Shown here: positions 41,075-60,582 of the stretch, one piece after another | Layout of the letters: each line of letters opens with the position of its first letter | How positions within the stretch are numbered: the first letter of the stretch is position 1 | Program-made: the position numbers and the translations under genes | Notes under the pieces: generated by a model | The model's input: the letters and a program-made list of their open reading frames with translations, nothing else | Databases searched by the model: none | Told to the model about the DNA's origin: nothing | Origin: Podarcis gaigeae | Lineage: Eukaryota | Assembly (NCBI GenBank): GCA_964106915.2 | Contig: OZ066927.1 | DNA: 64,000 nucleotides | Direction: 5' to 3' (one strand)

Positions 41075-41115
41075 CAGTTTGATTGCTACGTATTCATTTG
41101 TATAAAGATTTTTGC
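41075..41115 (-). CDS. CSNK1G1: CSNK1G1 coding exon (GKNLYTNEYVAIKL, catalytic Lys)
   Basis: 41 nt, cattgcag / gtgagt. Confidence 0.95.
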
Positions 41116-41334
41116 CTGCAATGGAAACAGAGACACAATAAACATCACAATGGTGACAGGTAAGTCAGTATTGCTAGTTTTTCAGGTTTCCAGAATGAAA
41201 AGAGGTTTACTCCAGATATTAGGGCTACAAGTACCATCAGCCCCAGTCAACACAGCTGTGCTGGCTGGCACTGATGACAGTTGTAGTCCAAAACATCTGA
41301 TCTGCTGTATAACTGCATCAATTAAATCTGACTA

Positions 41335-41564
41335 CAGTCGTATTTTGGAAGTCAAATGGAATCCGTTCCAGAAATCCGTTCAACTTCCAAAATGTTTGAA
41401 AACCAAACTGCGGCTCCTGCAGCCAATCAGAAGCCGGAGAAGCCCCATCGGACATTCGGCTTCCAAAAATAGTTCACAAACTGGGACACTCACTTCTGGG
41501 TTTGTGACGTTTGGGAGCCAAAACATTTGGGAACTAAGCTGTTCAAAAACCAAAGGTGTGACTG
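41335..41564. mobile_element. Tigger-like MITE, family B
   Basis: TA|CAGTCG ... TGACTG|TA; similar to 16868-17092. Confidence 0.7.
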
Positions 41565-42554
41565 TATGTTATTATGAGTACATTTTTAATGTGCAAAAAT
41601 GAATTCTATTCAATATTAGAGGGGATAATGTGTAAGTCACCTATTCTTTATCACCCATTGTTTTAGAACTTAAATTCTTCAAAGTTTTAATGTTTCTTTT
41701 ATATACATTTAATAATACAAAACTATTCAGAGAAAAGTATGAACAAGAATGTCCCTATGTAGGGGGGGAGGGAACCAAAGAAAATTGTTTGAAATGTATT
41801 TTTTTAAAGAAAACTGAGCCTAAACAAACTTAAACAAACCCAAGTTTCACGTAAGCACAAAGGTCTTGAAATTGTCAGCTAGATTGCCTACTTCATTTAT
41901 ATACTATTGCTAAAGTTTAAAGTGTATGCATGGTAGTCAATTGAAATATAATTTATATCCAACTTTTATATGAACTACCTCGTGCTTATACTTTTCTTCA
42001 GAAGCATAACTGAAATCTGAGTTTAAATAAAATTCCTCATTCTTTTGAGGCTCAAATAAAATCACGATAAATGAAACCCTAGTGAGGTTTATTTTACTCC
42101 CCAGCTAAAACTTGCTGTAAAGTCTTTCCCAAGTAGTGTATCAGCTACAGAGTAAACACAAAGTCCAACCTCTTTGGGGTGAGGGGAGAAAGGTGAAGAA
42201 AGAGCATTCATGTTACGAGGAAGCAACAGTCAAAATTAGGAGCTGCCTACCTGCCCTTCAGTGTTTGGGGCAGGAGAAAAATTAAGGGTCCTGGACAGGG
42301 GAGGAAAATATAGGCATGTGTCTTGAATTCAGAATTTAAGATTTGAGTTGACTGAACAAGCAAACCACTGATTAGATTTGCATATGGGTAAAAGTATATC
42401 AGAAGAAGCACAATTCATTTATTTTTAGATGATGTGCATGTGTCATAGCAGAAACCTTAGCATTTCTTTTATGTGTGAGAAAACAGAGAATGTATGGGAT
42501 TATGGTTGGACAAACCTGAATAGCTAAACTGCCTCATTAGCATTGAGAATTTCA

Positions 42555-43754
42555 TTTTTTTTAATAAAATATTTATTAAAATTTTTAAATACAAATGCAA
42601 AAATAATAAACAATATAACATATATCATAACATAGTTTCATAACTTCTTTGGACTCCCTCACGTCTCCCGCTCCCACTTACATCAGTATAGATTTTTACC
42701 AGCAATTTATCATCTTGTTTGCGTTCTTATGTCCCGCTCTTTTAAGTATAATATAATAAATCTCCAAAAGTTTTATATTTTCCTCAATCTCACTTATCAT
42801 CCTAATTCCATCTAATTTAGTGGTGCTCAATTATTTATGATCTAGCATCCTTCTTAACATTCAACCAAATTACAATATTTTTGTAAATAAATCTTAAATT
42901 TCTTCCAGTCTTCTTCAACCTTCTCCTCTCCCAGGTCTCGGATTCTGCCGGTCATCTCAGCCAGTTCCATGTAGTCTATCAGTTGCATCTGCCATTCTTC
43001 CAGTGTGGGTAGATCTTGAGTCTTCCAATGCTTAGCGATGAGTATCCTTGCTGCCGTTGTTGCATATAGGAAAAAAGTTCTGTCCTTCTTTATCACCCTC
43101 TGGCCGACAATACCCAGGAGGAAGGCCTCTGGTTTCTTATGGAAGGTATACTTAAATACCTTTTTCAACTCATTATATATCATTTCCCAGAAAGCCTTCA
43201 CTCTAGGGCACGTCCACCAGAGGTGAAAGAAAGTTCCTTCATTTCCTTTACATTTCCAGCATTTGTTATCAGACAAATGGTATATTTTGGCAAGTTTAAC
43301 TGGGGTCATGTACCATCTATATATCATTTTCATTACATTTTCCTTCAAAGCATTACATGCAGTTCAACCCAGTGGTCCACAACCTTTCCCAGTCCTCAAA
43401 CATAATATTATGCCCAATATCCTGTGCCCACTTTATCATAGCCGATTTAACCATTTCATCTTGTGTATTCCATTTTAACAGCAAGTTATACATTCTTGAA
43501 AGTACCTTAGTCTTAGGTTCTAACAGTTCTGTTTCCAATTTCGATTTCTCCACCTGGAATCCTAACTTTTTGTCATTTTTAAAAACTTCTTTAATCTGAG
43601 CGTAATGTAACCAGTCTCGCACTTTATCCTTCATTTTCTCCAAACTCTGCAATTTCCAGTTGTCTCCATCTTTTTCTAGTATTTCCCAATATTTTGGCCA
43701 TTTGGCCTCCATATTGGGTCTTTTTCAGGCCTTAGCTTCCAGAGGTGAAAGCCA
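42555..43754 (-). mobile_element. 5'-truncated L1-clade LINE (ORF2 C-terminus, 3'UTR, polyA)
   Basis: CWKCKGNEGTFFHLWWTCPRVKAFW zinc knuckle; frameshifted ORFs 43353-43712 and 42854-43348; poly(T) at 42555; 16-bp TSD AGCA(T/C)TGAGAATTTCA at 42539-42554 and 43755-43770. Confidence 0.92.
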
Positions 43755-44899
43755 AGCACTGAGAATTTCAGAGAAGTGTGGATGAAATAGTATTTGCATG
43801 CATTATAGCTACCTAAGATGTTTTATATGGTGAGTAGCATGTGCTGTTGGTGTGGACAGGGGAAGGATGACTTTGTCCTTAGCTGGTGGTTTTACCCAGA
43901 AGCAAGAAAGTTTAGGAATAATATTGTACACACGGATCCCGCTATCAAAACACTTGTTATCTGAAATCTCGGTTATCTGAACACAAAGAATTATACGCAA
44001 ACTTCACTACATAAGGCTGGCTCAGATATCCTAACAACTGGAGTTTGCCTACCTTCTTACTTGTTTGTGTTTTGCTGGTTGGAGGAGGCAATTTTAGGCA
44101 GAAACCATGTGGGGGAGGGGGAGGGGGAGGGAGAGAGATCAGACAAATCAGTTTTTCCTTTGTTTTCCTTTAGCTGATTTGCTGCTGCAGTTCCAGGCAG
44201 AGTGGAGGGAGGTAGCATGGGTTAGAAATGTTCCCATAGGAAATAATGGATATCATCATCTCATTTTAAGAAACAGCATTCTGCAGCAACCAGTTAAACC
44301 AGTACAAACTGGTGGGTATTATACTGGGCTTTAATTATTTTATCTGCTCTAAAAAATAAAAACAAAATAATTGCTTGTTTATGTGGGAAAATTTCATTTA
44401 GCAGTATTATGGAACAGAAAATTATATACTGTACTGTAGAATTCTGAAAAACAGCCGCTCAAGAAAGAACTGCATTAAGCATTATTTATAAATTTATATA
44501 AGCTTCATCATTTTCTGTATATATGGAAATTACTCAGCTAAACCAAGTTATGTATAGTAAAAAATAGCATATTAAAACTTCCTGAGCAGAAAAGGGGGGG
44601 GGGGAGAAAGATGTCACCCAAGTAAAGAAGTGTTATTTATAACTTTCATATGAAACAATATGAAAAACATATGTTTTGAATGAGGTATGTATATACTGCA
44701 GCAAAAACTACCTTAGAAAGGGCATCCCCCTTACGCAGGCGAGAGGGAAATGCCTTTCCCAAGGTGACACCTGCTATCTGAAGTTTTGACATGTACTGTA
44801 CATTAATTGCACAATTAGGGACACCTTTTTAGCTGATCAAAAGATTTTAACTAAATAGTGTAGCCCTGTTTACAACCTGTGAAAGTTATATGCTCTTAC

Positions 44900-45077
44900 C
44901 TAGCCTGAGCTCTCCGAAATTTCCACTGCCTATCTTCTTGCCAACTCTGAAATTGGGCCCAACCATAAGAACACCAGAGGCTGAAGTGGAACTTGATGCT
45001 CGGGAACTGTGTGAACTTCTTGCTGGATTTCCTTTTCCGGTTCGCCTTTCATCTTTCTCCCTAGTAAGATGGTCCAT
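44900..45077 (-). CDS. CSNK1G1: CSNK1G1 first coding exon, coding part (exon 2 spans 44900-45291 including 5'UTR)
   Basis: [12 protein letters not shown]...[25 protein letters not shown]; donor gtaaga at 44899; acceptor ctgttgtag at 45292. Confidence 0.96.
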
Positions 45078-59281: not shown

Positions 59282-59419
59282 CAATGCTTTTTTCTGGGGG
59301 GGATGCATACCCCTAAACATTCTGTGAACCAAATTTGGCCTCATTGAGTGGCAGTATTTCAATATGTGTAGAAGAATGAGAGTACCCCTAAACATTTTTT
59401 TAGGGAGGGAAAAGCACTG
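59282..59419. mobile_element. Small hAT MITE (138 bp)
   Basis: TIRs CAATGCTTTT / AAAAGCACTG; TSD GCCGTAGC / GCCGCAGC. Confidence 0.75.
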
Positions 59420-60118
59420 GCCGCAGCAATAAGATAAAACATACTGAAGATAGAAATAAAAACCTTAACTATACAAAATACATTTTGGAGGCTTACATCA
59501 ATAATCAAATCATTTTATTACTTATTACACTTATTTACCACCTTTTTTTCCAGAGAGCTCAAAGTAGTATATTTTCCTCCCCAGCTCATCCTCACGAGCC
59601 TGTGAGGTAGGTTGGGGTGGTGACTGGCAGAAGGTCACCCTGTGAGTTTCATGGCTGAGTGGGGATTCAAACCTTGGTCTCCCAGGTCATGGTCCAACAC
59701 ACTAACAATTTCAATACACTGGCTCTCAAAAATACATTCTCTGTCCCTTTGGCAAAGGCCCCGCGGTCACTGCTCATTTCTCACCTAGTGTGAGCTGTTC
59801 TTTTCTATCTTCTATCCCCCATGCCTATCCAGCTTTCTGCTGCCATAATCAGGGGCGCCGACTTATAAAAAATATTGGGGGGCCCATACTGGGGTCCTGC
59901 CCTGGGAAGTTTTCTAAGATCCGCTCCCGGCCCGTTGCTGCTGCTGCCACCCGCCTCGTGGCCCCCTCGCCAGCTGAGGGAGGGAGAGAGACCGAGAAGG
60001 AGAGAGATGCGTGGTGGGCAAGGCAAGTGCCCGCCGCGCCTCGCCTCCCACCGCCCCTCGTGCCGGCCGCCCCCTCCCCTCCCTTCCCCGCCCGCACTCG
60101 CTCGCTCGCCCTCCTCAC

Positions 60119-60227
60119 CCCAGCTCTTGGCCGTTCGCCCCAGGAACTCGCCGCTGTTGGGGTTGTAGATGAACCTCCGCCACTCGGCCATAGACTGGCT
60201 GAAGGGCTTCTCCTCCTCCTTGGCCAT
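60119..60227 (-). pseudogene. ATP1B3: Captured orphan copy of Na,K-ATPase beta-3 coding exon 1; intron-1 sequence extends to ~59920 and 5'UTR to ~60455
   Basis: [42 protein letters not shown]: 109 nt, phase 1, matching the ATP1B3 N-terminus ([22 protein letters not shown]). I found no further ATP1B exons downstream. Confidence 0.9.

Positions 60228-60230
<3 letters not shown>

Positions 60231-60265
<35 letters not shown>
60231..60265. repeat. (GA)n/(TC)n microsatellite immediately 5' of the captured ATG
   Basis: Direct reading. Confidence 0.95.
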
Positions 60266-60270
<5 letters not shown>

Positions 60271-60582
60271 CTGGAAAGAGAGAGGGAGCTCGGCGGTTCG
60301 CGGGCGGCGGTTTTTCCCCTGCCGAAACAACAGCGGCTCCTCAGAACCGCTAAGTAACTCTCCCTCAGGCGCCCGGCGGGAGAGCAGAAGAGAGGAAAAG
60401 GAAAGAGGGGCTGGGCCAGTCGCACGCACCGAGCAAAACTACTCGCGCCGCCTCTTTTACTACCGTAATAATTATTTGTTTTAACTCATTACTGAATGTA
60501 TTTTAAAAGGTAACTATCATCAAACAAGGAAAATAAAAAATACCAACATAATTTTGTGATTTTACAAAGCATAATATAACTA

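Follow-up and report, generated by a model that had tools for sequence, protein, structure and literature searches.

A stretch of 64,000 nucleotides of Podarcis gaigeae DNA (contig OZ066927.1 of assembly GCA_964106915.2; hereafter the window) contains a hAT transposon that has placed a captured first exon of ATP1B3 upstream of the kinase gene CSNK1G1. The main finding concerns the family to which this insertion belongs: a vertebrate Pack-hAT present at high copy number, with several cargoes, a partner element and perhaps an arthropod origin. Taken alone, the copy beside CSNK1G1 is probably ordinary. The names ATP1B3, CSNK1G1 and PCLAF are assumed here from Pfam matches, from the naming in the original prediction made on this DNA and from known sequence features.

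The element is bounded by terminal inverted repeats (TIRs) and an 8-bp target-site duplication (TSD). Its parts are listed by position in the window, with the strand where one applies (UTR, untranslated region).

59842..59849: left 8-bp TSD, GCCATAAT, from the sequence
59850..61996, minus strand: non-autonomous hAT (Pack-hAT) of 2147 bp with 14-bp imperfect TIRs, CATAGGCGCCGACT / CAGGGGCGCCGACT; its ends match those of the partner element L166
59916..60457, minus strand: captured ATP1B3 piece (5'UTR, coding part of exon 1, its donor, some 200 nt of intron 1), by match to the parent
60119..60227, minus strand: coding part of ATP1B3 exon 1, 36 codons and 1 nt, with a GTGAG donor after 60119, phase 1
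60271..60288, minus strand: cryptic motif resembling a 3' splice site (pyrimidine run, CAG) in the captured 5'UTR, a candidate acceptor
60458..60581, minus strand: AT-rich filler of 124 nt (78% AT); the parent has a 74% GC stretch at the corresponding place
60583..61900: second DNA element, nested in the first, with a 154-bp unit repeated 5.5 times, a TA duplication and CCGTATTTTT ends
61997..62004: right 8-bp TSD, a copy of GCCATAAT, from the sequence

The captured ATG (60227, minus strand) lies in the context GCTATGG and opens 109 coding nt. The encoded peptide of 36 residues (MAKEEEKPF...TAKSW) corresponds to the start of the Pfam family Na_K-ATPase (profile positions 2-31, E 6e-8). The nested element, which we take to be Tc1/pogo-like, occupies a site that is empty in older ATP1B3 copies (e.g. 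L040). The capture starts about 25 nt 3' of a CCAAT-like motif of the parent, and the upstream promoter motifs of the parent are not in the cargo: opposite the filler, the parent carries what are presumably GC-box, CCAAT, CRE and ETS-like motifs.

Counts over the whole genome indicate that this structure is repeated many times. The junction between filler and ATP1B3 occurs 250 times at two mismatches or fewer, an exact 39-mer covering the exon end and the donor 170 times (parent included), and the family end motif at least 602 times; the reversed-pattern control gave 0 in each case. The last figure is a lower bound, as copies with another length of G-run, among them the copy of the window, escape the pattern. 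By DNA search, the full 731 nt were matched at 95-100% in 39 of the 40 candidates that were scored, out of 1,373. A perfect 8-bp TSD was found at 23 of the 25 loci with both ends, and at all 34 loci with wide flanks (some copies are shared with the set of 25). The ATP1B3 copies carry distinct TSDs and lie far from the parent. This parent is single (G000:C9:73542047-73542550, with 497 identities and 38 gap letters, mostly in a CT repeat); it is located on another contig, within a CpG island and without flanking TIRs, and its exon 2 lies about 16 kb downstream. That a Pack-hAT family carrying the first exon of ATP1B3 is real is thus, in our view, practically certain, and the element is a member of the multicopy Pack-TIRs in the sense of Tan et al. 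A processed pseudogene is ruled out by the presence of intron 1 in the cargo, and a segmental duplication by the distinct TSDs. Membership in the Helitrons was likewise rejected: TIRs and a TSD are present, and rolling-circle ends were not found. At one locus, L012 (G000:C2:111.406 Mb), a composite copy combines two pieces of the ATP1B3 exon and two 3' ends within a single TSD.

The predicted autonomous partner, L166, is a hAT of 3.0 kb (positions 3532-6564 of its locus, G000:C1:109.567 Mb) with the same ends as the Pack copies, which retain only 53 nt (5') and about 69 nt (3') of its termini. It contains a 730-codon transposase frame with DUF4371 and hATC domains (PF14291, PF05699). The same ends are common to the transposase elements L166, L168 and L169. 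None of five transposase candidates is free of defects on every point: one combines the open frame of 730 codons with the lack of a TSD and a decayed 3' TIR, in three the frame is shorter or broken, and one has no 5' end in the fetched stretch. As the ends are common to both, the Pack copies would have been mobilised in trans by the transposase of the partner. The observed part of the pathway we propose is an internally deleted hAT with host DNA in its place, amplified with new TSDs. The start of the ATP1B3 gene, over about 500 bp, would have been captured, likely once, through template switching during repair. The 3' capture junction shows a 2-nt overlap, and the filler ends, before the 5' junction, in a short stretch that by eye resembles hAT 3' subterminal sequence. 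Such a capture would correspond to the gap-repair or FoSTeST models of Tan et al. (PMC8277862).

ATP1B3 is not the only cargo. A census was made of 58 loci, drawn from the first 100 listed ends, without an exact exon match nearby. It gave 57 complete elements: 33 with the backbone and the nested element, 9 with ATP1B3, 8 with cargo-34, 4 with cargo-48, 2 with cargo-42 and 1 with a piece of transposase. Cargo-34, cargo-48 and cargo-42 are all GC-rich. Cargo-42 (L042) matches a host CpG island at C16:57.37 Mb (91%); two of the four hits of cargo-34 (L034) lie outside the family TIRs; and for cargo-48 (L048) the search for a parent turned up nothing but a second hAT-like family. The latter (L246, L247, L127-L133), whose ends begin CAGTGGCG, carries cargo-42 as well as cargo-48. 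The presence of these two cargoes in both families suggests that cargo passes between them. Some loci have particular structures. At L042 (G000:C1:29.19 Mb), two copies of 2,451 bp, 99.9% identical and inverted, lie about 2 kb apart with different TSDs, and this pair is a very recent local hop. One cargo-48 insertion, marked by a single TSD, recurs within a tandem unit of about 26.6 kb (L092-L101, on C32, C65, C106 and C113). The family copy L073 contains an inserted long interspersed nuclear element with an open frame of 1,036 codons, which we take to be a very young RTE-type insertion.

Two successive subfamilies of ATP1B3 copies are distinguished: the older lacks the nested element and mostly has the letters of the parent at two sites; the younger, which is the larger, contains that element. 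Divergence from the family majority is 0.73% on average (64 copies) and 0.22% for the copy of the window, whose single private change is at a CpG. Given this mean divergence and a substitution rate of 1-3 per 10^9 sites per year, we infer an age of a few million years. For the partner transposase, the closest named proteins outside lizards are a spider sequence at 83% (67% of the query covered) and a planthopper sequence at 69%; entries of Podarcis muralis are at 83-84%, and the next named vertebrate transposase, from a turtle, is at 39%. Judging from these similarities, a horizontal transfer of the partner hAT, with an arthropod origin, is possible.

Known systems help to place the family. 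Tan et al. 2021 (PMC8277862) give 4 multicopy Pack-TIR cases in reference genomes; copy numbers of the three others than Pack-hAT-N8_XT may stand in supplementary tables. Pack-hAT-N8_XT carries the 5'UTR of CAPSL and has 3 copies (PMC8277862). As in that element, hAT ends surround a host gene-start fragment, the cargo is GC-rich, TSDs are distinct and the parent lies on another chromosome without TIRs. Unlike it, the lizard family numbers about 250 copies with a whole first coding exon, its ATG and its donor, and has other cargoes, cargo sharing and a partner element that is present. Bat Helitrons have amplified the promoters of 15 genes to 4,690 copies, according to Grabundzija et al. 2016 (PMC4778049), where three transcripts of vesper bats start inside an insertion of HelibatN3 carrying NUBPL. 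The lizard element is similar in that a mobile gene start (first codons and donor) at high copy number could trap downstream exons. HelibatN3 is, however, a rolling-circle Helitron with the NUBPL promoter and demonstrated chimeric transcripts, whereas the lizard element is a cut-and-paste hAT without the upstream motifs of the parent, known here from sequence alone. Rice Pack-MULEs (PMC5861414) are also TIR elements which acquired GC-rich 5' gene sequence; they belong to another superfamily and insert preferentially near transcription starts, a bias which is not significant in the lizard. No published description of this element was found in a literature search that fell short of most subscription journals. 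As far as these sources go, what sets the family apart is its size (about 250 copies, the published vertebrate example having 3), together with the several cargoes and their sharing.

The relation of the window copy to CSNK1G1 was then considered, for which the following features are needed.

41075..41115, minus strand: CSNK1G1 exon 3, which reads KNLYTNEYVAIKL after the phase-1 junction
44900..45291, minus strand: CSNK1G1 exon 2, with acceptor at 45291, kinase ATG at 45077 and a phase-1 end
48504..48648, minus strand: alternative exon upstream, joined by splicing to CSNK1G1 exon 2 in an RNA contig of a relative (run X1 only), donor GTGAG
57001..58000, minus strand: CpG-island promoter and non-coding exon 1 of CSNK1G1 (GC 0.61, CpG observed/expected ratio (O/E) 0.80), with donor candidates near 57860 and 57700
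58300..59519, minus strand: three sense-strand AATAAA (59519, 59259 and 58300) on the way from the captured donor to the CSNK1G1 island, by sequence scan

The original prediction held that the captured exon is positioned as an alternative first exon of CSNK1G1, and its anatomical basis is confirmed. Both exon and gene are on the minus strand, with some 2.2 kb from the captured donor down to the CSNK1G1 CpG island (57001-58000), and the ATG is in good context (GCTATGG at 60227) with an intact phase-1 donor (GTGAG after 60119). The frames come out as had been announced. By frame arithmetic, a hypothetical splice from 60119 to exon 2 (acceptor 45291) would give an upstream open reading frame (uORF) of 61 residues in total, with a stop ending at 45215, ahead of the kinase ATG at 45077. 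If exon 3 were joined instead, at the phase-1 junction at 41115, the frame would be kept and the product would lack the first 59 residues of the kinase, including the GSGNFG of the glycine-rich loop. Exon 2 of CSNK1G1 already has four upstream ATGs (frames of 18, 10, 3 and 12 codons), so that an extra uORF would be no new kind of control.

The cargo shows a marked loss of CpG. Transitions amount to 0.0149 per site per copy at CpG against 0.0028 at other C/G positions, a 5.2-fold difference (78 events on 82 CpG sites and 41 on 226 non-CpG sites; p 8e-19). In the nested transposon the values are 0.0085 and 0.0014, a ratio of about 6 based on only 6 and 10 events. As the decay of the cargo is close to the ratio of the nested transposon, it points to a germ-line methylation of the family. 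The surroundings of the copies were compared with controls, leaving out controls L228 and L234 (family element inside), and L052 and L084 (no 5' end). CpG islands within 3 kb were not significantly enriched (12 of 34 copies, 8 of 38 controls; p 0.20), nor were non-repeated islands (6 of 34 copies, 3 of 38 controls; p 0.29). A promoter targeting of the Pack-MULE type was rejected, as the enrichment in islands is not significant. At the control rate, about 10 in 250 copies would have an island of this kind downstream. Given some 250 copies and no significant bias, a copy at 2 kb from a promoter is what chance would lead one to expect.

No RNA of P. gaigeae itself was found for the window, which carries no information on expression. 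RNA over 41000-60600 was examined in two relatives, as assembled contigs for relative A (X1 and X2, two of four such runs) and as raw reads for relative G (X23 and X24, about 12% of each). The joints listed in the relatives include that of CSNK1G1 exon 2 with exon 3, and none among them, in A or G, starts from 60119, at an exon 2 depth of about 10-16 reads. The loose ends at the donor are ATP1B3 exon 2 (395 + 329 reads, agreement 0.96). At 60212, all reads of the relatives carry the letter of the parent (285/285 and 251/251), where 49 of the 64 P. gaigeae copies differ. At 60176, relatives A and G differ from the P. gaigeae parent and from all 62 readable sequences; a second such site, 60315, is weak, since five copies share the letter of the relatives at a homopolymer edge. 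To judge by these letters, relatives A and G probably lack the insertion family, and the capture probably postdates the split. Their RNA is therefore not counted against a chimera. In relative G, the CSNK1G1 island region has a minus-strand RNA depth of 1.1-1.4. The exon at 48504-48648 was seen in run X1, at six times the contig depth of X2, and may be an alternative first exon used in particular tissues.

The copy beside CSNK1G1 is quite probably a chance, methylated insertion that yields little or no chimeric RNA, its exon being the cargo of a young hAT. Several points weigh against this explanation. The ATP1B3 ATG, the 109-nt stop-free frame and the donor are intact in 58 of 64 copies, which is explained by the youth of the family. 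The CpG decay is a germ-line average over the family and gives no indication of the somatic state of the window copy. Islands were present in 5 of 34 downstream segments of copies against 3 of 76 control segments (p 0.10), and in these small samples the point estimates lean toward islands. According to Tan et al. (PMC8277862), at least 30% of Pack-TIRs are transcribed as chimeras, mostly from host promoters. Finally, the ATP1B3 transcript probably starts inside the captured piece, so that the core start region was captured, since relative G has 64 molecule ends of the parent transcript at 60364 and one contig of relative A extends to 60447.

The model in which the window copy fires as an alternative first exon, spliced to exon 2 (uORF) or to exon 3 (loop-less kinase), keeps the part of the original prediction which concerns compatible frames and splice sites: both chimeras are permitted, the start region of the parent is within the cargo, only two other pyrimidine-rich acceptors (59973 and 48832, by a simple rule) precede exon 2, and HelibatN3 provides a precedent (PMC4778049). 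Its functional part is nevertheless unlikely: the upstream promoter motifs of the parent are missing, the promoter region of the transposase is gone with 53 nt of the 5' end kept, the CpGs of the cargo have decayed, three AATAAA stand in the path to the CSNK1G1 island, and the position is expected by chance. The cargo could also serve as an internal cassette, read-through from PCLAF exon 3 entering at the cryptic acceptor (60271) and continuing to CSNK1G1. PCLAF, on the minus strand just past the window, is upstream and co-oriented; the distance from its exon 3 donor (phase 2) is 7.9 kb to the cryptic acceptor and 22.9 kb to exon 2. Such a route would do without a promoter of the element itself, the acceptor motif is found in 62 of 65 sequences, the parent among them, and the candidate cassette of 152 nt (60270-60119) would be entered in phase 2 and left in phase 1, so that PCLAF, the ATP1B3 peptide and CSNK1G1 exon 3 would share one frame. 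Such a frame match has, however, odds of about 1 in 3 (cassette length modulo 3 is 27/16/19 over 62 sequences), several AATAAA lie between PCLAF and CSNK1G1, no read supports the path, and the literature search returned no paper on PCLAF-CSNK1G1 read-through; we consider this explanation highly improbable. An effect in cis with no chimera at all, through spreading of methylation or through a second CpG island 2 kb upstream, would agree with a CpG-rich insert near the promoter (O/E 0.71 in 60001-61000) and with a family that is a target of methylation. It is very unlikely too, as the CSNK1G1 island is intact (O/E 0.80) and other repeats already lie between (RNA depth on both strands at 58004-59965).

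Two observations are adjacent to these questions. The CT run at 60231-60269 is short in the parent and reaches about 19 units in the copies, so that the frame of the cryptic cassette varies from copy to copy. At L257 (G000:C17:65.676 Mb), a PAF-family match covers profile positions 11-116 in one piece with one stop, and by its structure this is likely a processed copy of PCLAF.

Published vertebrate multicopy Pack-TIRs are rare and low in copy number, and the present family offers about 250 young, near-identical sites with copy-specific alleles. Tentatively, a hAT that would have entered recently from arthropods may act as a natural exon-trap screen, with about 250 acceptor-ATG-donor cassettes spread over the lizard genome and CpG-island cargo exchanged with the second hAT family; some of the copies, the one between PCLAF and CSNK1G1 perhaps among them, may give chimeric or in-frame fusion transcripts. 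Sense copies within introns could be exonised without any promoter, by means of the cryptic acceptor and the donor. The family permits asking whether the sequence of a CpG island alone starts transcription without upstream motifs, and estimating how frequently relocated gene starts undergo silencing, exonisation or co-option.

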